NCBI GenBank assembly: GCA_036725605.1
Contig: DAIMDW010000026.1
Coordinates: 832-64,831 of the forward strand
Direction: 5' to 3'
DNA from: a bacterium
Lineage (GTDB): Bacteria > Lernaellota > Lernaellaia > Lernaellales > Lernaellaceae
Length of the DNA: 64,000 bases
In this document: one piece after another, positions 9,741-60,304 of the stretch
How the letters are laid out: each line of letters opens with the position of its first letter
How positions within the stretch are numbered: the first letter of the stretch is position 1
Position numbers and translations under genes: made by a program
Notes under the pieces: model-generated
The model's database searches: none
What the model saw: only the letters and a program-made list of their open reading frames with translations
Told to the model about the DNA's origin: nothing

Positions 9741-10400
9741 TCAGCGCAACGATTGGCCTGTCCACCATAGTTTTAGCGGAGAAGGAAGGGATCCCTTTCC
9801 GACACCCACGAAATTTTTCCCGACTTCCAAATCGGGACACCCGGAGCCGACAAGCCCCGCAGGGGCGACTGGTATGCCGCCCTCATCCCCGACCCTTCTC
9901 CCACGGGGAGAAGGGAGACCGGGTTGCCTATTTTTAAAAATGCGGGGACACGAAGGAATCGAGTCCCCGATTTTTTCTACCCTCGCCCTCTGGGAGAGGG
10001 TCGGGCGCAGCCCGGGGTGAGGGATTGCCTTCCCGACTTTCGAATTGGAACACCCTGAGCCCCGGAGGGGCGACTGGTCAGTAGCGAAGGGCGGCAGCCC
10101 TGGAAACTGCGACCTACCCAGAACCAACAAGCCCCGGAGGGGCGCAGGAATCTTTGACAATTCGCATCAGATCGGCCACGGCGACTTGCGTATGCGTTGA
10201 AAACGATCGGCTGTTCCGCCGGAGGCGAACATCGCTTGCACCCCTGCGGGGTTTGCTTGAATTTGCCTCGTCTGATTCCAGGGCTAAAAGCCCTTCGCTA
10301 TTGACCTGCGCCCTGCGGGGTGGAAGATCCTGCGCGGAAGTTCATTTCAACGTCACCCGTTTTTTCTTCTCGGAACACCCTAAATCAAAATCGCCTTAGA
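9741..10400. repeat. Dense intergenic repeat cluster with several families, including a nested inverted-repeat element.
   Basis: Contains the hairpin gcggggacacgaaggaatcgagtccccg, a family-B copy and the unit gacttccaaatcgggacaccc...ccccgcaggggcg. The inverted pair 10079–10103 (cagtagcgaagggcggcagccctgg) and 10271–10296 (ccagggctaaaagcccttcgctattg) flanks an about-170-bp core. Listed ORFs here such as 9741..10160 are spurious. Confidence 0.75.
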
Positions 10401-10502: not shown

Positions 10503-10551
10503 GAAAAACCCGCCACATTTGAGCTTGCTCCCGAAGGCGCAGAGGCTTGGC
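10503..10551 (-). terminator. Rho-independent terminator for the AT-rich gene, on the minus strand.
   Basis: Minus-strand reading is cccgccaag...tggcggg followed by tttttc, immediately 3' of the CDS end at 10592. Confidence 0.5.
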
Positions 10552-10591
10552 GGGTATGCTGGGTAAACGTTATAGAATTTTGATAATTCTG

Positions 10592-18599: not shown

Positions 18600-18990
18600 C
18601 TGGTCCTAAAAAATCGGGGACATGATTTCATCGTGTCCCCGTATTTTCTGGCCCGCCTGCGCTCAAGCTGCGGTGGGACAGGCCCGCCTGCGCGGGCATG
18701 ACGGCAATTCTGTCATCTCGACCGGAGCAAAGCGGAGTGGCAATGTCCGCCAAAGCTTTTTGCGACGGCGGACCTGTCCGCCATAGCCTTGGCGACGGCG
18801 GACCTGTCCGCCATAGCCTTGGCGACGGCGGAAGAGATCCCTTTGTCTGGTCATCCCGCGCCCCAAGAGACTGTCGATAAATGCGTCGACAGGCGACAAA
18901 CAGCCCCGTCAGGGGCGACAGAGGGTAGCCCGGTGCGTGAGCGCCGGGCAAAAACGCCCTAATTTCCCCCAAATCCCGCAGGAGCAACAG
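18600..18990. repeat. Intergenic repeat cluster: second copy of the about-150-bp element, with an internal 30-bp tandem duplication.
   Basis: Hairpin cggggacatgatttcatcgtgtccccg, the block tgtcatctcgaccggagc...ggcggaagagatccctttg matching 1455–1600, and gtccgccatagccttggcgacggcggacct repeated twice at about 18771–18838. Confidence 0.7.
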
Positions 18991-19104
18991 ACGCTTTCAT
19001 TTTCCAAACGAGAAAATCGACAGTCTCCCCCGACGCGGGATCTGGCCGCAATAAGCACCCGCTTCCGCGCGGCCCTAGCCGCTGGCCGAGGCTTCACACA
19101 ATGA

Positions 19105-19185
19105 ATGAAACATAGGTCCAGGAATTATTCCTGCCAGGGATTCTCTCCAGCGACCATGTTCCCACGGAACAAGACCGCAGCTTTT
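19105..19185. repeat. Family-A palindromic repeat copy.
   Basis: ataggtccaggaattattcctgccagggattctc...catgttcccacggaacaagaccg is the reverse-complement match of 1230–1290. Confidence 0.65.
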
Positions 19186-20466: not shown

Positions 20467-20699
20467 TTTGGTTTCCTACTTTTCATTGAAAATGAGGAAC
20501 AGTCTATTTCACAAACCAACAGAAAAAGTACGGCCAAGGCGCCGGTAACCGAAATGCGGATCATTTCATCCTCCAATGCGGGCGAAGCGGCGCGAGGCTT
20601 CAGCTTCGCGCGATTATTCTACGGGAATAAAATTGAAATGTACATGCTGAAAAACACTGACAAGCCGCACTGCGTTCGGCGTGCCAGCGCCACCCGGCA

Positions 20700-20945
20700 G
20701 GTTATTTGTAGGGGCAACTCCCCGTGGTTGCCCCGGCCTGGGTTGCCCTGGCCTGGGTAGGCACGGGGACCTACCCCTACGATGGTTGCCCTGCCGCTGG
20801 GTAGGCACGGGGACCTACCCCTACAATGGTTGCCCTGGCCAGGATTGCCCTGGCCTGGGTAGGCACGGGGACCTGCCCCTACAATGGTTGCCCCGGCCTG
20901 GATTGCCCTAGCCTGGGTAGGCACGGGGACCTACCCCTACGGCTG
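20700..20945. repeat. Tandem minisatellite, about 4.5 copies of a 44–58-bp unit.
   Basis: The unit gtaggcacggggacctacccctacaatggttgccc(t/c)ggcc(a/t)ggattgccct(g/a)gcctgg repeats head-to-tail with a 15-bp indel between copies. Confidence 0.8.
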
Positions 20946-20975: not shown

Positions 20976-21160
20976 GTGGGACACTTTTCGCGAAGCGTCC
21001 CACCGTCGATTTTTGCAACATATTGATATCATTGATAAAACATAAAAAATAAGCGTGGGACAAAGTGTCCCATTTGTCCCACTTGGGGCTCCAAAACGTA
21101 CCTGAAAATGCGGGGACACGAAGGAATCACGTCCCCGATTTTCGGAGAAACCGGGACACG
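20976..21160. repeat. Hairpin repeats with a GGGACA core.
   Basis: gtgggacacttttcgcgaagcgtcccac, gtgggacaaagtgtcccatttgtcccac, and gcggggacacgaaggaatcacgtccccg, the last being the same family as 9945 and 26155. Confidence 0.6.
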
Positions 21161-26149: not shown

Positions 26150-26466
26150 AAATGCCGGGGCGCGAAGGAATCAACTCCCCGCTTTCTCCGCAAAAATCAC
26201 GAGACACGCAGCAAGTGCATGTCCCGGAGTTTTCGCGAACCGTATCGATCGAGTACATGCCCTCATGTGGCCCGGCCGCCGGCCGAGGGCACACATAATA
26301 AAGGCAAAACATCGGTCCTGGGATTATCCCCGGCACCTTTGGCGGATAGCCAAAGGTGTGGCACACGGAAGAATCCTCGCGCGCGCGGCTCAGCCGCCGG
26401 CCGAAGCTCCACAAAATGAGGGCAAATCATAGGTCCAGGGATTATCCCTGGCAGGAATTATTCCTG
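26150..26466. repeat. Repeat cluster: one hairpin-family copy and three family-A palindromes.
   Basis: gccggggcgcgaaggaatcaactccccgc, then catcggtcctgggattatccccgg, and cataggtccagggattatccctggcaggaattattcctgg. Confidence 0.7.
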
Positions 26467-49085: not shown

Positions 49086-49104
49086 ATCTGCAACCAAAAA
49101 GGAT

Positions 49105-49640
49105 GACCTCATCAGAGGCAATTACGCCAAGTCTTCTGATTTCCGAATTGGAACACCCGGCGCCGACAAGCCCCGCAGGGGCGGAAGGTCAGTAGCGAAG
49201 GGCGAAGCCCTGGAAATGGCGGCTCGCCCAGATCAGGCAACCCCTGACAAGGGGTGTAGGATTTTTTGAAAATTCGTATCAACGAGATTACCAGCACCCC
49301 TTTCAGGGGTTTGTTTTAATTTGGTTCTTTTTATACCAGGGCTGAAGCCCTTCGCTATTGACCTGCGCCCTCCGGGCTTGAAGAACCTTCACATAGATCC
49401 ATTTTTCGTTGGTTGGAGCCCTTCGCTATTGACATGCGCCCCGCAGGCTGGACAATCCAGCGCAGAAATTACTTCGACCTTGTTCGACGTTGCCCGTTTT
49501 TTTCTCGGGACACCCAAAATCAAAATTGCCATCCAGAAAGTTCAGGTACTTTCCAAAGAGAAAACAGGCTGCGCGGAAGTCAGGAAAAGATAACCCCATC
49601 AGGGGCAATAACGCCAAGTCTGATGGGGGGCAAATGAATA
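49105..49640. repeat. Intergenic repeat cluster with nested inverted-repeat architecture.
   Basis: The forward unit at 49139–49215 is ttccgaattggaacaccc...ccccgcaggggcggaaggtcagtagcgaagggcgaagccctgg. Two inverted copies follow at 49338–49385 and 49407–49452 (ccagggctgaagcccttcgctattgacctgcgccc). There is also gcaattacgccaagtct at 49117 and gcaataacgccaagtct at 49605. Confidence 0.75.
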
Positions 49641-49809
49641 CTTAATGAACATCTTCCTTACCGCATACGATTGTCAATCGATTCAAAAAACCATCCTTTC
49701 GGCATGAACGGCGACGTGGGATAAATCGCGGGACTACTTGACACAATTTTTTCCAAGGGCTAGGAATAACCCCTTGAAATTCCGCTTGCTGGAGACAGGA
49801 GACATCGCG

Positions 49810-53457: not shown

Positions 53458-55626
53458 ATGAGCGAAAAATTGACCGGTCAGATACGCCGCATCGTTTTCC
53501 GCAACGAGAACAACGGCTACGTGATCGCTTCGCTCAAACCGGAAAAGAGCGGTCAACCGGTGACGATCGTGGGCCGCCTGCCCGGCGTGGCCGTCGGCGA
53601 AACGATCGAGTGCGCCGGCCGCTGGGAAACCGACTTTCGCCACGGCCGTCAGTTCCGCGTCGACACGTTCACCGCCCGCCCGCCGACCGACGCCGACACC
53701 ATCCGCCGCTACCTGGGTTCGGGATTGATCAAGGGCATCGGCCCCAAGCTCGCCGGCGAACTGGTCGACCGCTTCGGCGTCAAGACGCTCGAGGTGATCG
53801 AGCGTCAGCCCAAGCGCCTGCGCGAAGTGCCGGGCATCGGCCAGGCGCGCGCCCAGCAGATCACCGACGCCTGGCGTGAAAGCCGGGACATCCGCGAGAT
53901 CGGCCTGCTGCTGGAAAAGGCCGGCGCGCCGCGCCACCTCGTACTGCGCGTGCGCCAGCGCTTCGGCGAACAGGCCGCCGACGTCGTGCGGCACGATCCG
54001 TACCGGCTGGTCGCCGAGGTGCGCGGCATCGGCTTTCTCACCGCCGACCGCATCGCCCGCGGACTGGGCGTCGCCGAGGACGATCCGGCGCGGCTGCGCG
54101 CGGGGTTGCTGCACACGTTGAACCTGGCCGCCGAGGACGGGCACACGGCGTTGGCGCTGGATACGCTGATCGCCGAAGCCGCGCGGTTGCTGCAAGCGCC
54201 GCCGGAAAAGCTGGACCCCGAGGTCGAACGGCTCATCGCCGCCGGGCACGCGCGCCGCGAGATGCTTGACGGGCAGATCGTGTTGTCGCCGACCGGCCTG
54301 GCGCTGGCCGAACGGCGGCTGGCCGCGGCGATCGTCGGCATTCAACGCGCCGCCGATCGCTTCCGATCGATCAACCGCGACAAGGCCGTCGCCTGGGTGC
54401 AAAAGCGCTTGAACATCGAACTGACCGAGCGTCAGCGCGAGGCCGCCGTCGACTCCATCGAGCAACCGCTGCTGGTCGTCACCGGCGGGCCGGGCACCGG
54501 CAAGACGACCATCGTGCGCTCCATCTGCGAAATGGTCGAGGCGATGAAGCGCACCGTCGCGCTGTGCGCGCCCACCGGCCGCGCCGCCAAGCGTCTGGCC
54601 GAAACCACCGGCCGCGAGGCCAAGACGGTGCACCGGTTGCTGGAGATCAACCCGGCGAAACACGAGTTCACCTACAACGCCGACAACCCGCTGGCGCATG
54701 ATCTGGTCGTCTGCGACGAGGCCAGCATGCTCGACGCCCCGCTGGCCGCGCACCTGGCCGAGGCTATCCCGCCCGGCGCGCACCTGGTGCTGGTCGGCGA
54801 CGTCGACCAGTTGCCCAGCATCGGCCCGGGCAACGTGCTGGCCGATCTGATCAACTCGGAGCGCGTGCACGTCGTGCGGCTGGACAAGATCTTCCGCCAG
54901 GCCGCGCAAAGCCGTATCGTGCTCAGCGCGCACGATATCCGCCAGGGTCGTCTACCCGAACTGGCTCCGACCAAGGACGGCGATTTCTTTTTCATCGAGC
55001 AGGACGATCCGGTCGCGTTGCGCGAGCTGGTGGTCGATCTGGCCGCGCGGCGGCTGCCGCAAACCTACAACCTCGATCCGCTCGGCGAGATCATGGTGCT
55101 CGCGCCGATGCACAAGGGCGAGGCCGGCGTGGCCGCGCTCAACGAGGCTCTGCGCGCGCGGTTGAATCCGGCGGGCGCGGAGTTGATTTTCGGCGAGCGC
55201 TCGTATCGCCTGGGCGACAAGGTGATGCAGACGGCCAACGATTACGACCGCGAAATCTACAACGGCGACATCGGGCGCGTCGCGCGCGTCGACGAGGCGC
55301 ACAAGGAGATCGTCGTGGATTTCGACGGCCGGATGGTGGGCGCGCGCGAGGGCGAACTGGCCGACCTGGTACACGCCTACGCGGTGTCCATTCACAAGTC
55401 GCAGGGCAGCGAATACCCGTGCGTGATCGTGCCGCTGCACACGCAGCACTTCATTTTGCTGGCGCGCAACCTGCTGTATACGGCGGTTACCCGCGGCAAA
55501 AAGCTGGTCGTGGTGTGCGGTTCGCGCCGGGCGCTGGCGCGGGCGGTGGAGAACGACGCCGCGCGGCATCGCACGACCTTGCTGATCAATTACCTCGAAT
55601 CGGCCAAACCCGGCCGCTTGTTGTAA
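53458..55626 (+). CDS. recD2: RecD2-type ATP-dependent DNA helicase (SF1B).
   Basis: N-terminal OB/HhH region, Walker A VVTGGPGTGKTT, and VLVGDVDQLPSIGPGNVL. The C-terminal SH3-like and helicase motifs (VSIHKSQGSEYP; LLYTAVTRGKK) are present. Confidence 0.9.
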   Translation: MSEKLTGQIRRIVFRNENNGYVIASLKPEKSGQPVTIVGRLPGVAVGETIECAGRWETDFRHGRQFRVDTFTARPPTDADTIRRYLGSGLIKGIGPKLAGELVDRFGVKTLEVIERQPKRLREVPGIGQARAQQITDAWRESRDIREIGLLLEKAGAPRHLVLRVRQRFGEQAADVVRHDPYRLVAEVRGIGFLTADRIARGLGVAEDDPARLRAGLLHTLNLAAEDGHTALALDTLIAEAARLLQAPPEKLDPEVERLIAAGHARREMLDGQIVLSPTGLALAERRLAAAIVGIQRAADRFRSINRDKAVAWVQKRLNIELTERQREAAVDSIEQPLLVVTGGPGTGKTTIVRSICEMVEAMKRTVALCAPTGRAAKRLAETTGREAKTVHRLLEINPAKHEFTYNADNPLAHDLVVCDEASMLDAPLAAHLAEAIPPGAHLVLVGDVDQLPSIGPGNVLADLINSERVHVVRLDKIFRQAAQSRIVLSAHDIRQGRLPELAPTKDGDFFFIEQDDPVALRELVVDLAARRLPQTYNLDPLGEIMVLAPMHKGEAGVAALNEALRARLNPAGAELIFGERSYRLGDKVMQTANDYDREIYNGDIGRVARVDEAHKEIVVDFDGRMVGAREGELADLVHAYAVSIHKSQGSEYPCVIVPLHTQHFILLARNLLYTAVTRGKKLVVVCGSRRALARAVENDAARHRTTLLINYLESAKPGRLL

Positions 55627-55649
55627 AGATTTTCGACGCCAATTTCGGT

Positions 55650-56262
55650 TAAAATCATTTCTTTCCTGACTTCCGCACGCCCTGTTTTTTATTTTGTAGG
55701 TGCTCGAAATCACAAGACGGCGAGTTCGGTTTAGGGTGTCCTGAGAAGAAAATCGGGCGAAGACGAACAATGTTGAAATGATTTTCTGCACAGGATCCTC
55801 AAGCCCGCAGGGCGTAGGTCCGTAGCGAAGGGCTTTTAGCCCTGGAATCAGAAGAGGCAAATTCAAGCAAACCCCGCAGGGGTGCCGGTGATGCCAAACC
55901 ATCTGTCCCTGCAATAACACCTCGGTGGCACTGATACGCCGAACGAAGTGAGGGGTATCAGTGTTTTATTTTAACACTGACAAACTCGCTCACGATGTTC
56001 ACTCGTGTATCAGTGCCACCGCTTATGAAAGATTCCTTCACCCCTTGTCAGGGGTTGGACGGTCTGGGTGGGCCGTGGTTTCCAGGGCTTCGCCCTTCGC
56101 TACTGACCTTCCGCCCCTCCGGGGCGTATCGGCTCCAGGTGTCCCAATTCGGAAGTCAGGCGCACGACCTTGCTGATCAATTACCTCGAATCGGCCAAAC
56201 CCGGCCGCTTGTTGTAGAAATTTTCGACAGCTTTTTCGCTTAAAAATCATTTATTTAGCAAA
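55650..56262. repeat. Composite repeat insert flanked by an about-100-bp direct duplication of the recD2 3' end.
   Basis: 55566–55665 and 56157–56262 are near-identical (cgcacgaccttgctgatcaattacctcgaatcggccaaacccggccgcttgttgta...attttcgac...ttaaaa.tcattt). The insert has a forward family unit at 55800–55850 and an inverted unit at 56082–56150. The outer ends are cctgacttccg and cggaagtcagg. Confidence 0.75.
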
Positions 56263-56349
56263 AACCTTTTAAAAATCTTGACAATCCGTCCCCGGTTTTA
56301 TAGAAGGAAATGTCTACATATAGTGGTCGTTATTTCCTTGAGTATCAAC

Positions 56350-57030
56350 ATGTGGAACAAAGTTACAATAATTATAGCCATTAGCTGTATCGCGATACTC
56401 GGCACGAGTGTTTCGGCGTTTGCTCTGGGCGTGGGCGGTCTTTCCTATAATATCGGGCCGTCGTTTTCGTTGAGCGCCGGCGTGAGCTTCACCCAACGCG
56501 ACGTGTACACGATCGAAAACGACGACCTCGACGATGAAATGATTTCCAGTCGTTTTCTGGTCAAGGGCGACGTCGCGCCGATCCGCTACCTGGATATCTA
56601 CGGCTTCATCGGCATGGGCGATCTGCAGCAGGACGACGGCGAGTTCGAAGGCACCCTGGGCACGATGTATGGTGCGGGCATCAAGCCGCAATTGTTCCCC
56701 CTGACCTGGTCGAGCCCGTTGAACATCACGCTGGACGCCCAATACGCCGAGTTGCTCACGCGCGACGACGACATCGACGCCAAAATGCAGGAAGTGCAGG
56801 TGGCCCTGGTCTTCGCCTACGTCATGCGCAGCCTGACCCCCTACGGCGGCGTGAAGTACGATCACCTGCTGGTCCACTTCGACGGCGCGGACAACGACAT
56901 GGTTACCGACATGGACTGGGGCGCGTTCATCGGCTGCGACTATTACGTGACACCCAATGTGTTTTTCAACCTGGAGCTGTCGATCTTCGCCGAAACCGCC
57001 TTCTTCATTTCCACCGGGTACAAATACTAG
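56350..57030 (+). CDS. Outer-membrane beta-barrel protein, OmpW/OmpA-like, small.
   Basis: Signal peptide [25 protein letters not shown]. Alternating beta-strand pattern and an aromatic-rich C-terminus (FISTGYKY). Confidence 0.5.
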
Positions 57031-57040
57031 GAGCGAAAGA

Positions 57041-57688
<648 letters not shown>

Positions 57689-57717
57689 CGGGTACGCCTG
57701 ACCATCATCCTTTTTGC

Positions 57718-57765
57718 GGGCCGTGATCCTTCCCCCCCAAAACCCCATCACGGCCCCTTTTTTTA
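57718..57765 (+). terminator. Rho-independent terminator after tal.
   Basis: gggccgtgat, a 19-nt loop, then atcacggccc, followed by cttttttt. Confidence 0.7.
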
Positions 57766-57864
57766 CCCTTTTTCCGACTTTTCCCCGGCGCTGGATTTTA
57801 CCGCCGGCCGGCCTTATAATAAGGATCATCGAAAAATAACCGCCAAAACAATGGGAGACCGTGG

Positions 57865-58221
57865 ATGTCCGATGCCGAGCGGGAAGACCGCCGACCCTGG
57901 GGCGGCTATTGCGTGCTGGCCGATGAAACCGACCACAAGGTCAAGCGGATTACCGTGCTGCCCGGCGCGCGTTTGAGCTTGCAATACCACCGGCGCCGCC
58001 TCGAGCATTGGTACATCGTGCGCGGTACGGGGGTGGTCACGCGCGGCGAAGAGCAAATTTCCGTCGGGCCCGGCGACGCGGTGGACATTCCCACCGGCGC
58101 GGCGCACCGCATCCACAACACCGGCGCCGAACCGCTGGTCTTCATCGAAGTGCAGCGCGGCGACTATTTCGGCGAGGACGATATCGTCCGGCTCGAAGAC
58201 GACTACGGGCGCGACCGCTAG
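57865..58221 (+). CDS. Cupin-domain protein, mannose-6-phosphate isomerase-like cupin_2.
   Basis: PWGGYCVLADETDHKVKRITVLPGARLSLQYHRRRLEHWYIVRGTG...GAAHRIHNTG contains the two cupin His motifs. Confidence 0.7.
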   Translation: MSDAEREDRRPWGGYCVLADETDHKVKRITVLPGARLSLQYHRRRLEHWYIVRGTGVVTRGEEQISVGPGDAVDIPTGAAHRIHNTGAEPLVFIEVQRGDYFGEDDIVRLEDDYGRDR

Positions 58222-58261
58222 CCCTTGACACAAGCCTTATATTGCCGATGGAGGAACCGTC

Positions 58262-58609
58262 ATGAAAGCTGCGCTTTTTGCATTCAACGGAGAACCGATG
58301 TGCTTCGTACACGTGCTGCTCAACGCCTTCGACCTGCGCGACAAGGGTTGGGAAGCCACGATCGTCATCGAAGGTTCGGCGACCAAACTGGTCAGGGAAT
58401 TCCACGAGAATCCGGACGCGCCCTTCGCCCCGCTGTATCGCAAGGCGAAGGAGGCAAACCTGATCGGCGCGGTCTGCCAGGCCTGCGCGACCAAGATGGG
58501 TTCGCTGGACAGCGCCAAACAGCAGGGCCTGCCGCTGGGCAACGACATGGCGGGCCACCCGAGCATGAGCGCGTACCTTGACGACGGCTGGCAAGTGTTT
58601 ACTTTTTAG
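58262..58609 (+). CDS. DsrE/DsrF-like family small protein.
   Basis: MKAALFAFNGEPMCFVHVLLNAF...ATIVIEGSATKLV...CQACATK. The size and Cys pattern fit DsrE/YchN-like proteins. Confidence 0.45.
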   Translation: MKAALFAFNGEPMCFVHVLLNAFDLRDKGWEATIVIEGSATKLVREFHENPDAPFAPLYRKAKEANLIGAVCQACATKMGSLDSAKQQGLPLGNDMAGHPSMSAYLDDGWQVFTF

Positions 58610-58651
58610 CTAATAAGCAACATCGCCGACGGCGCAAACAGGAGACGCCCC

Positions 58652-59647
58652 ATGGATCTGCCGGGATTTTCGTTCGACTTGTCCACGACCTTGTCGCAGG
58701 CGACGCCGCCCGACCCGGGCACGGTGTACGACCTGTTGATCGTCGGCGGCGGTCCGGCGGCGATGACCGCCGTGGTCTACGCCGCGCGCAAAACCATGCG
58801 CCTGGCCATGCTGGCCAAGGACGTCGGCGGCCAGATGGGCTGGACCTCGGAAATCGAAAACTACATGGGCTTCCAGACGATCAGCGGCAAGGAACTGACG
58901 CAGAAATTCCGCGAGCAGGTCGAACAGTTCGACGTGCCCATCGCGCTGGACCAAAACGTGACGACGATCGAAAAACACGACGAGTTGTTCGTCGCCACGC
59001 TCGAAAACGGCCAACGCTTTCGCGGCCGCACGCTGATCATCGCCACCGGCAAGCGCGACCGCCCGTTGAACGTGCCCGGCGAAAAACAGTTCGTCGGCAA
59101 GGGCGTGGCCTACTGCGCCACCTGCGACGCGCCGTTCTACAAAGAGAAAACGGTGGTCGTCGCCGGCGGCGGCAACAGCGCCTTCACCGCCGCGCTGGAC
59201 TTGCTCAAGGTCGGCGCCGCGGTGACGCTGGTCAACTTCGCGCCCGGCTGGCAGGCCGACGAGGTGATGCGCAAGTCGCTGGACCGCTTCGGCGACCAGG
59301 TGACCTATCTCGACGAGCACCAGGTCGTCGCCGTCGAAGGCGAAGCGCGCGTGAACGCCGTGCGCGTCAAGGATCGCCGGACCGGCGAGGAGAAGCGCCT
59401 GGCGGTCGACGGCATCTTCGTCGAGATCGGCTTGCTGCCCAACAGCGAGCCGCTGGGTGAACTGGCCGAACTAAACGCGCACAACGAACTGATCGTCGAT
59501 TGCCACTGCCGCACCAGCGTGCCCGGCCTGTTCGGGGCCGGCGACGTGACCACGGTGCCGTTCAAACAGATCGTCATTTCGGCGGGCGAGGGCGCCAAGG
59601 CGGCGCTGTCGGCCTACGATTACCTGACCCAACATGGACATTTGTAA
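58652..59647 (+). CDS. trxB: Thioredoxin-disulfide reductase (pyridine nucleotide-disulfide oxidoreductase).
   Basis: FAD motif LLIVGGGPAAMTAVVYAA, redox-active CATC (GVAYCATCDAPFY), NAD(P) motif VVVAGGGNSAFTAA, and C-terminal GLFGAGDV. Confidence 0.85.
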   Translation: MDLPGFSFDLSTTLSQATPPDPGTVYDLLIVGGGPAAMTAVVYAARKTMRLAMLAKDVGGQMGWTSEIENYMGFQTISGKELTQKFREQVEQFDVPIALDQNVTTIEKHDELFVATLENGQRFRGRTLIIATGKRDRPLNVPGEKQFVGKGVAYCATCDAPFYKEKTVVVAGGGNSAFTAALDLLKVGAAVTLVNFAPGWQADEVMRKSLDRFGDQVTYLDEHQVVAVEGEARVNAVRVKDRRTGEEKRLAVDGIFVEIGLLPNSEPLGELAELNAHNELIVDCHCRTSVPGLFGAGDVTTVPFKQIVISAGEGAKAALSAYDYLTQHGHL

Positions 59648-59659
59648 GGAGGACCGGTT

Positions 59660-60304
59660 ATGGGACTGCTCAAAGAAAAAGACGCCAAACAACTACAGGA
59701 CGCGTTCGCGCAACTGCCGCACGAGGTGAAGCTGCTGTTTTTCACCCAGGAGCACGAGTGCGAGTATTGCCAGATCACCCGCGAGCTGGTCACCGAGCTG
59801 GCCGGCCTGTCGGAGAAGATCACCCTCGAAACCTATGACTTCGTTGCCGACAAGCAGGTCGCCGAGCAATACAACATCGACAAGATTCCGGCGATCGTGG
59901 TGATGGGCGAGCGCGACTACGGCATCCGCCTGTACGGCGTGCCGGCCGGGTACGAGTTCGCCACGCTGGTCGAGGACGTCATCGACGTGGGCCGCCGCGA
60001 TCCGGGCCTGCCCGCCGAGATCGTCGCCGCGTTGCAAAAGATCGACCAACCGGTGCGCCTGCAGGTGATGGTTTCGCCGACCTGCCCCTACTGCCCGCGC
60101 GCCGTACGCACCGCGCACAAGTTCGCCATGATCAACGAACACATCGTCGGCGACATGGTCGAAATCAGCGAGTTCCCGTTCCTCGCGCAAAAGTACGATG
60201 TGCAGGGCGTGCCCAAAACCGTGATCAACGACAAGTGGGACGTGGTCGGCGCGGCGCCCGAACAGCAGTTCCTGGCGAAGATTCAGGAAGCGCTCGCCGG
60301 CTGA
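59660..60304 (+). CDS. Glutaredoxin-like protein disulfide oxidoreductase with two thioredoxin-fold units.
   Basis: Two CxxC motifs (CEYC; CPYCP), each in thioredoxin-like spacing. It lies immediately downstream of trxB. Confidence 0.7.
   Translation: MGLLKEKDAKQLQDAFAQLPHEVKLLFFTQEHECEYCQITRELVTELAGLSEKITLETYDFVADKQVAEQYNIDKIPAIVVMGERDYGIRLYGVPAGYEFATLVEDVIDVGRRDPGLPAEIVAALQKIDQPVRLQVMVSPTCPYCPRAVRTAHKFAMINEHIVGDMVEISEFPFLAQKYDVQGVPKTVINDKWDVVGAAPEQQFLAKIQEALAG

Follow-up and report, generated by a model that had tools for sequence, protein, structure and literature searches.

Duplication of the recD2 3' end around a 496-bp insert

How can a gene carry its 3' end twice, on either side of an insert, and still be complete? 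The question is raised by recD2 in a 64,000-nucleotide stretch of contig DAIMDW010000026.1, from a bacterium of the Lernaellaceae (the window below is this whole stretch). The last codons of recD2, its stop codon and the nucleotides (nt) that follow recur behind a 496-bp insert, just upstream of a gene for an outer membrane protein (OMP). We consider it about 90% probable that a miniature inverted-repeat transposable element (MITE), derived from an insertion sequence (IS) of the IS1634 family, inserted 38 nt past the recD2 stop codon and thereby duplicated 96 bp of its target. The features of the locus, in order, are the following.

53458..55626, + strand: recD2, 722 amino acids, with Pfam domains HHH_RecD2, OB_YrrC, SH3_13, AAA_19/30 and UvrD_C_2
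55570..55664, + strand: left copy of the target-site duplication, contiguous with recD2, comprising 54 coding nt (the last 18 recD2 codons), a TAA stop and 38 nt downstream
55665..56160, + strand: insert of 496 bp between the two repeat copies
56161..56256, + strand: right copy of the target-site duplication, with a TAG stop, non-functional as coding sequence and contiguous with the ancestral intergenic region
56257..57030, + strand: upstream region and OMP beta-barrel gene (gene 56350-57030), Pfam OMP_b-brl

The two repeat copies are 95 and 96 nt long, and their 96 aligned positions hold 8 mismatches and one 1-nt indel (90.6% identity). Their local alignment scores 72, compared with a best score of 12.5 among 100 shuffles of the flanks. 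The insert ends in an 11-nt terminal inverted repeat, CCTGACTTCCG (55665-55675) and CGGAAGTCAGG (56150-56160). A preliminary description of this DNA, made from the letters alone, had proposed a direct duplication of the recD2 end with about 8 mismatches and an 11-bp inverted repeat at the outer ends of the insert, and all of this stands. It was right that the left copy holds the gene end, the stop and downstream nucleotides, but it counted 20 codons where there are 18, and the limits it drew around the repeat (55566-55665 and 56157-56262) were 4 to 6 nt too wide.

The closest relatives found, the contigs L001 to L003, are syntenic with the window through the porin gene, alaS, an HDOD gene, recD2, the OMP gene and beyond. 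The recD2 product has 93% amino acid identity to the protein P0001 of the syntenic contigs, and the recD2 genes have diverged by 7.7% in nucleotides and by 12.8% at fourfold degenerate sites. In all three relatives, the OMP gene begins 132 bp after recD2, and the 96 bp occur once, with no insert. The site is likewise empty in the more distant L004 and L005 (66% protein identity), where recD2 and the OMP gene are 118 bp apart. The locus was thus correctly described as the scar of an insertion or recombination that left the gene terminus intact, and the comparison with orthologous recD2 loci that had been proposed as a check found the empty site.

A collapsed or expanded repeat might in principle have given a false duplication, and the 57-nt identical block could well confuse short-read assemblers. 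However, the same filled structure is found in an independent contig from a different Joint Genome Institute (JGI) sample. This contig, L094, matches window positions 55585-59931 at 99.6% and has no difference from the window in the element, in the right repeat or in the part of the left repeat that it reaches (80 nt); it ends inside the left copy, which is the second point that could be held in favor of an artefact. The identical structure makes a one-off assembly artefact unlikely, so that the check by an independent assembly came out on the side of a real duplication. In addition, the copies differ at 9 positions, and are therefore not a collapsed identical repeat, and the same architecture is seen five more times at other loci, and again around full-length ISs whose contigs measure 4.6 Mb and 268 kb. 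Taken together, we consider an assembly error highly improbable.

All 17 differences between the window and L094 fall within 58712-59152 (440 bp), the other 3.9 kb being identical. Such clustering would fit either a variable segment or a tract of local recombination between strains.

The insert, its partner insertion sequence and long target duplications

By its sequence, the insert is a MITE, a miniature non-autonomous derivative of a 1.64-kb IS of the IS1634 family. Its last 23 nt (56138-56160, GGTGTCCCAATTCGGAAGTCAGG) are identical to the right end of full-length ISs, and its 3' 24 nt align with IS right ends. At the other side, the 5' ~95 nt (55665 to about 55760) align with IS left ends, including the GGGTGTCC box, and the alignment extends as far as the GGGTGTCCCGAG box, which immediately precedes the start codon of the transposase. 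Between these IS-derived ends lie GC-rich hairpin modules specific to the MITE family, and both strands of the insert fold far better than shuffled sequences (z = -9.8 and -8.5). Besides a long antisense open reading frame (ORF) situated mostly over recD2, the ORFs listed in or overlapping the insert are only 70-82 amino acids long, so the 506-amino-acid transposase described below cannot be encoded by the insert.

The partner IS was found with a degenerate form of the 23-nt right end used as a search pattern against metagenomes. The pattern matched ~30 contigs, most of them without other similarity to the insert, and in more than half of these contigs the right end sits a few nt past the stop codon of a conserved ORF of 506 amino acids. 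This ORF matches NCBIfam NF033559, the IS1634 family transposase, with 367 and 352 bits at a cut-off of 100 (E = 1.5e-109), and it also matches Pfam DDE_Tnp_1. Complete partner ISs are 1640-1645 bp long and start with CCTGACTTCCGAG; the end CCTGACTT is compatible with the IS1634-family end consensus C-----YT (PMC2266710). Among the 8,000 database proteins scored, 7,985 matched at E <= 1e-80, and one close homologue is labelled Phycisphaerae.

The flanks of the partner IS were read from well-assembled contigs, including the 4.6-Mb and 268-kb ones already mentioned. Perfect direct repeats abut both ends of five out of five independent full-length ISs, with lengths of 26, 105, 67, 108 and 104 bp. 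The 105-bp repeat takes in the 3' end and stop codon of a GH127 (glycoside hydrolase) gene, like the recD2 case. For the MITE, we surveyed complete copies with both ends and enough flank, and flanking repeats were present at all six such copies, which lie at independent loci and have repeats of 83-95% identity. The MITE repeats abut the left end and start 0-10 nt from the right end where this was measurable; no consistent microhomology was found at the right junction. The repeats of the six copies are as follows.

MITE copy A (recD2): repeat of 96 nt
MITE copy B: repeat of 37 nt
MITE copy L067: repeat of at least 128 nt, reaching the contig end and including a gene 3' end and stop codon
MITE copy L025: repeat of 40 nt, with an intrinsic terminator
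MITE copy L082: repeat of 35 nt, spanning the spacer of two convergent genes
MITE copy L108: repeat of 32 nt

The repeated sequence differs at each locus and is therefore derived from the target, not from the element. Indeed, the duplication at recD2 is a target-site duplication of the kind made by the partner IS lineage. The preliminary description had considered the repeat far too long to be a classical target-site duplication, a view that does not hold for an element whose partner IS makes perfect duplications of 26-108 bp.

Short-read contigs with a full IS gave a different picture, most of them having no duplication. In these contigs, one right flank occurs with different left flanks, and one left flank with different right flanks (L133, L136 and L137 versus L129/L131; L130 and L138; L132). 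Such mix-ups mark the short-read IS contigs as chimeric and therefore uninformative on duplications.

The locus-specific repeats also bear on a second kind of insertion. A site-specific integrative element could have carried a replacement recD2 3' end and duplicated its attachment (att) site, the insert then being a decayed remnant without its integrase. The position at a gene 3' end, the regenerated gene and a repeat length within the range of some att duplications would all fit such an element. Yet a fixed attachment sequence common to all element copies was looked for and not seen: other copies, in the same genome and in related metagenome-assembled genomes (MAGs), carry locus-specific repeats of different sequence and length. 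Moreover, no integrase is present, and the ends match those of an IS with a DDE transposase. We attach very little probability to an integrative element here.

Some properties of the family recall retroposition, in which an RNA copy of the element would be reverse-transcribed and integrated in the manner of a short interspersed element, or a reverse transcriptase would switch templates onto terminated transcripts. The repeat length is variable, and a similarly oriented T-run or terminator usually precedes the left junction. Several copies retain the 3' end without the 5' end, and there is A-rich filler of 8-10 nt past the 3' end in two copies, with 41 nt of A/T-rich sequence in a non-canonical copy. 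This reading was dropped because the IS partner was found: the element ends are those of an IS with a DDE transposase, and full-length copies of this IS give rise to long duplications of the same kind. Furthermore, a scan of the neighboring genes revealed no reverse transcriptase, the 5'-truncated copy C has no convincing duplication, and no intron or retron RNA was detected by Rfam. Retroposition is thus scarcely credible as the origin of the recD2 repeat.

Other candidates were also set aside. A diversity-generating retroelement, whose changes would be limited to adenines of the template repeat, does not fit mismatches that affect each of the four bases and are located past the stop codon, nor other copies that are intergenic, and no reverse transcriptase for such an element was found among the neighboring genes scanned. 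A group II intron (class C, terminator-targeting) or other known structured RNA was rejected, there being no Rfam match at the gathering score. Rfam searches of the whole window at the gathering score, and of 55400-56500 at E <= 10, returned nothing relevant (locus hits, E >= 1.5), and a match to Acido-Lenti-1 RNA in the MITE 3' module (13.6 bits) is at chance level. No tRNA or tmRNA target was found in the window, and a Pfam scan of 19 window ORFs found neither a transposase nor a reverse transcriptase.

Probable mechanism and the uneven divergence of the repeat copies

The ends shared with the partner IS, its transposase family, the empty sites and the long duplications around both MITE and IS are shown by the sequences; mobilization in trans, staggered joining with gap filling, and the timing of the insertion are our inferences. 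The DDE transposase would presumably have been supplied in trans by the partner IS. It would bind the inverted ends of the MITE and probably the subterminal GGGTGTCC boxes as well, as expected from the general chemistry of DDE transposases. The two 3' ends would then be joined to the target on opposite strands, at points 96 bp from each other, and both single-stranded gaps would be filled in by repair synthesis of the host, leaving a long direct duplication of the target. As the stagger starts 18 codons short of the recD2 end, the left copy would complete recD2, and the right copy would stay with the upstream region of the OMP gene.

Several observations weigh against this account. The usual duplication of the IS1634 family is 5-6 bp and AT-rich (PMC2266710), and ISGka5, a member of the family, made a 6-bp duplication on transposition in the laboratory (PMC8024623). 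With 5-6 bp being typical of the family, long duplications are a trait of particular members; IS1634 and IS1549 have direct repeats that vary in length (8-514 bp), and according to a 2008 review of the IS4-related families there was no proposed model for them (PMC2266710). Two MITE copies have 8-10 extra nt between the right end and the right repeat. A tblastn search with the transposase gave no match, either in the 64-kb window or in ~45 loci of the lineage taken from MAGs and metagenomes, and no full IS was among the motif matches from the same metagenome samples. Possibly the MITEs are relics, with copies that are only 74-88% identical to one another. Lastly, the differences between the two recD2-site copies are clustered, with 1 in the 57 nt through the stop codon versus 8 in the 39 nt after it (Fisher p = 0.003), and simple neutral decay of a duplication does not predict that differences cluster in the left copy.

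The last point could be followed further with L002 as the outgroup for assigning changes. Both recD2-site copies share 5 differences from L002. Another 7-8 changes are unique to the left copy, all of them at or after the stop codon, and 1-2 are unique to the right copy. In the tail after the stop codon, the left copy has changed more than expected from the per-lineage divergence at fourfold degenerate sites (P = 0.007). In the right copy, the 54 nt that were once coding have no changes, and the post-stop part agrees with the single L002 copy at 36 of 39 positions. A similar pattern is seen in old repeat pairs, in which coding-derived parts are kept identical and non-coding parts are 11-20% different.

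Error-prone synthesis at the time of insertion was considered as the source of the left-tail changes and rejected, since the young IS repeats are perfect (410 bp without a mismatch). It is also opposed by the orthologous filled site of L025 and L122, where changes in one repeat copy arose after the lineages split.

Another way to arrive at such repeats is recombination. A circle or fragment carrying the element and one 96-bp copy, released from a related strain when its flanking repeats recombined, could have been integrated by homologous (Campbell-type) recombination, in which case the two copies would be donor and recipient alleles. The same process could act on top of an original transposition, spreading filled sites. 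The differences between copies are indeed allele-like, with coding-derived parts identical or mostly synonymously different (in L067, GTA/GTG, GCT/GCC and TTG/CTG, with one AAA/CAA, as read by eye; in copy A, the stop codons TAA and TAG), with the 11-20% difference in non-coding parts, and with a left tail exceeding fourfold-site divergence. For restriction-modification units that have long target duplications, a comparable life cycle has been put forward (PMC2853133). However, a first event giving repeat, element and repeat would still be required, and the partner IS demonstrably makes such structures, with perfect repeats. The changes in L025 and L122 after their split are ordinary post-insertion divergence. 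A donor diverged by 20% in the tail yet identical over 54 coding nt is unlikely, given that the window and L002 differ by 7% there. On balance, we find recombination an improbable origin of the duplication, with transposition of the MITE preferred.

For the uneven divergence after transposition, there are two simplest readings. One is that the left tail was freed from the constraint that conserves the OMP upstream region; the other is that the selected left copy serves as donor in gene conversion, which would maintain the block in which the copies agree. A diverged allele may also have contributed through recombination.

The cleanly assembled full-length ISs (5 of 5) and the complete MITEs (6 of 6) have duplications of 26 to at least 128 bp, and none has one of 5-6 bp. 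Because of this, we propose, tentatively and at somewhat less than even odds, that long duplications are the rule in this widespread branch of the IS1634 family and that continuing conversion or recombination also lies behind the uneven divergence of old repeats. If so, there would be many natural insertions for studying how a DDE transposase joins ends so far apart.

Neighboring genes, other repeats and known systems

The RecD2 C terminus is full-length, reading ...ESAKPGRLL where L002 has ...ESARPNRLL. Promoter-like hexamers occur at 56278-56324, between the right copy and the OMP start codon, and the 93 nt from the right copy to that codon show only 3 differences from L002. The empty-site contig L002 already has these 96 bp immediately before the OMP gene, within the 132-bp intergenic region; the proximal context of the OMP gene is therefore ancestral. 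It had been suggested that the second copy rewires the OMP promoter, which is not supported in light of the right copy keeping the upstream context seen in L002. A promoter scan of the + strand found no consensus promoter within the MITE. The only change upstream of the OMP gene is that recD2 is 591 bp further off, behind a strongly self-pairing element, and any putative effect on neighboring genes would stem from the extra 591 bp and the self-pairing of the MITE (z = -9.8). No special regulatory story is needed, the duplication being a by-product of transposition with recD2 intact and the OMP upstream region unchanged.

The preliminary description took the insert to consist of repeat modules of a family, and further copies do exist. 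The conserved 17-mer GCCCTTCGCTAYTGACC, a family motif, occurs 7 times in the window, with 0.02 occurrences expected. The other copies and the nested elements are the following.

49135..49584, - strand: MITE copy B, complete, between the porin gene and alaS
10032..10395, - strand: MITE copy C, 5'-truncated (first ~53 nt gone), inside the composite 9819..10395
9819..9867, - strand: duplicated 3' module of the MITE, a partial copy
9868..10031, - strand: second, unrelated MITE of 164 bp, nested in the 3' module of copy C, with ends CCCTCACCCCGG... and ...GGGGATGAGGG
55923..56021, no strand assigned: nested 99-nt palindromic hairpin with 15-nt perfect outer arms, within MITE copy A only

Copy B has an imperfect target duplication of 37 nt on its two sides (49585-49621 and 49098-49134, 86% identity), and like the recD2 insert it is absent from L001 to L003. 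It lies in a segment consisting of a hairpin plus a T-run, CCCCCCATCAG...CTGATGGGGTTATCTTTT (49588-49630, with surroundings at 49086-49737). This segment is wholly missing in L002, where the spacer between the porin gene and alaS is 165 bp versus 712 bp in the window; because of this, a MAFFT alignment of the copy-B site with L002 was uninformative.

Copy C has no convincing flanking duplication. The 164-bp MITE nested in it is flanked by a ~49-56-nt imperfect duplication of the 3' module (10032-10080 and 9819-9867). The composite of the 3' module and the nested 164-bp MITE is also found at L006, L010, L052, L070, L090 and L122, and this recurrence across loci and genomes indicates that it spread as one unit. 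At the orthologous filled site in two lineages (L025 5560-6040 and L122 5315-6070; flanking protein 95% identical), L122 retains a nested second MITE and two 3' modules, with flanking repeats that match at 40 of 41 positions. In L025, ~290 nt was lost via a deletion between similar hairpins, and the right repeat has 5-6 extra changes.

The 99-nt hairpin of the recD2 insert is missing from MITE copies B, C and L067. Related sequence occurs at 20651-20694 in the window, on its own in L028 (883-983 and 1101-1201), and in L080. Occurring alone elsewhere, it is probably another small mobile repeat that entered the MITE as a secondary insertion. More widely, a 17-mer scan of a genome collection placed the MITE family in at least three uncultured MAGs, with many chance matches in unrelated genomes as well, and a metagenome scan found it in JGI samples Ga0116163 and Ga0116164.

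The intergenic regions of the genome are crowded with small nested repeats. Further tandem or dispersed short repeats lie at 20725-20941, at 19066-19142 and 26382-26459, and at 9937-9976, 18608-18647 and 21105-21142. A terminator-like hairpin among the short repeats, GGGGACTCGATTCCTTCGTGTCCCC, is the core of the second (164-bp) MITE. Elsewhere in the window, Rfam gave gathering-score matches to Acido-Lenti-1 RNA (18902-18948, - strand, 38.5 bits) and to the abiF motif (10508-10554, - strand, 37.2 bits), the latter followed by MITE copy C and not by an abiF-like gene.

The recD2 scar lies within known transposon biology and is not a new kind of system. Annotators who expect duplications of 2-14 bp will overlook such insertions or take them for scars of recombination, duplicated gene ends or errors of assembly. 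The collected insertions, with perfect IS repeats of 26-108 bp and the older MITE ones, could help in studying the long duplications of the IS1634 family. The nearest known elements are IS1634 of Mycoplasma mycoides and IS1549 of Mycobacterium smegmatis, which share with the partner IS an IS1634-family DDE transposase, ends fitting C-----YT, and long variable repeats. The repeats of the IS measure 26-108 bp and those of the MITE 32 bp to at least 128 bp, compared with a published range of 8-514 bp (PMC2266710). The partner IS differs in belonging to another branch, of an uncultured lineage, and the window element in being a non-coding 496-bp derivative with hairpin modules.

The recD2 element resembles other bacterial MITEs derived from ISs in that it is short and non-coding, combines both IS ends with subterminal sequence, and is multicopy, intergenic and polymorphic between close relatives. 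The duplications of most bacterial MITEs are 2-10 bp long, whereas those described here are tens to more than 100 bp. To our knowledge, long duplications have not been reported around MITEs of the IS1634 family, although we made no search aimed at them. In addition, the interior of the recD2 MITE is not just deleted IS sequence and contains hairpin modules and nested small repeats.

Long duplications are also found with other kinds of elements. Nobusato is said to have described "insertion with long target duplication" of restriction-modification gene units in 2000. For such units, the repeats are >30 bp and align with just one copy in the genome that has the empty site (Furuta et al. 2010, PMC2853133). 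As at recD2, the repeats surround the insert and often overlap a gene 3' end; however, the units are kilobase-sized and have no transposon ends or known enzyme, whereas the recD2 insert has IS ends and an identified transposase family. IS1630, an IS30-family element of Mycoplasma fermentans, makes variable target duplications of 19-26 bp (cited in PMC2853133), which are likewise unusually long but come from a different transposase family and span a much narrower and shorter range. Finally, integrative elements that use the ends of tRNA or protein genes similarly leave a 3' end present twice and the gene intact. They do so with a recombinase and a fixed att sequence that they carry, whereas a repeat of the recD2 type is copied from whatever target the element enters.

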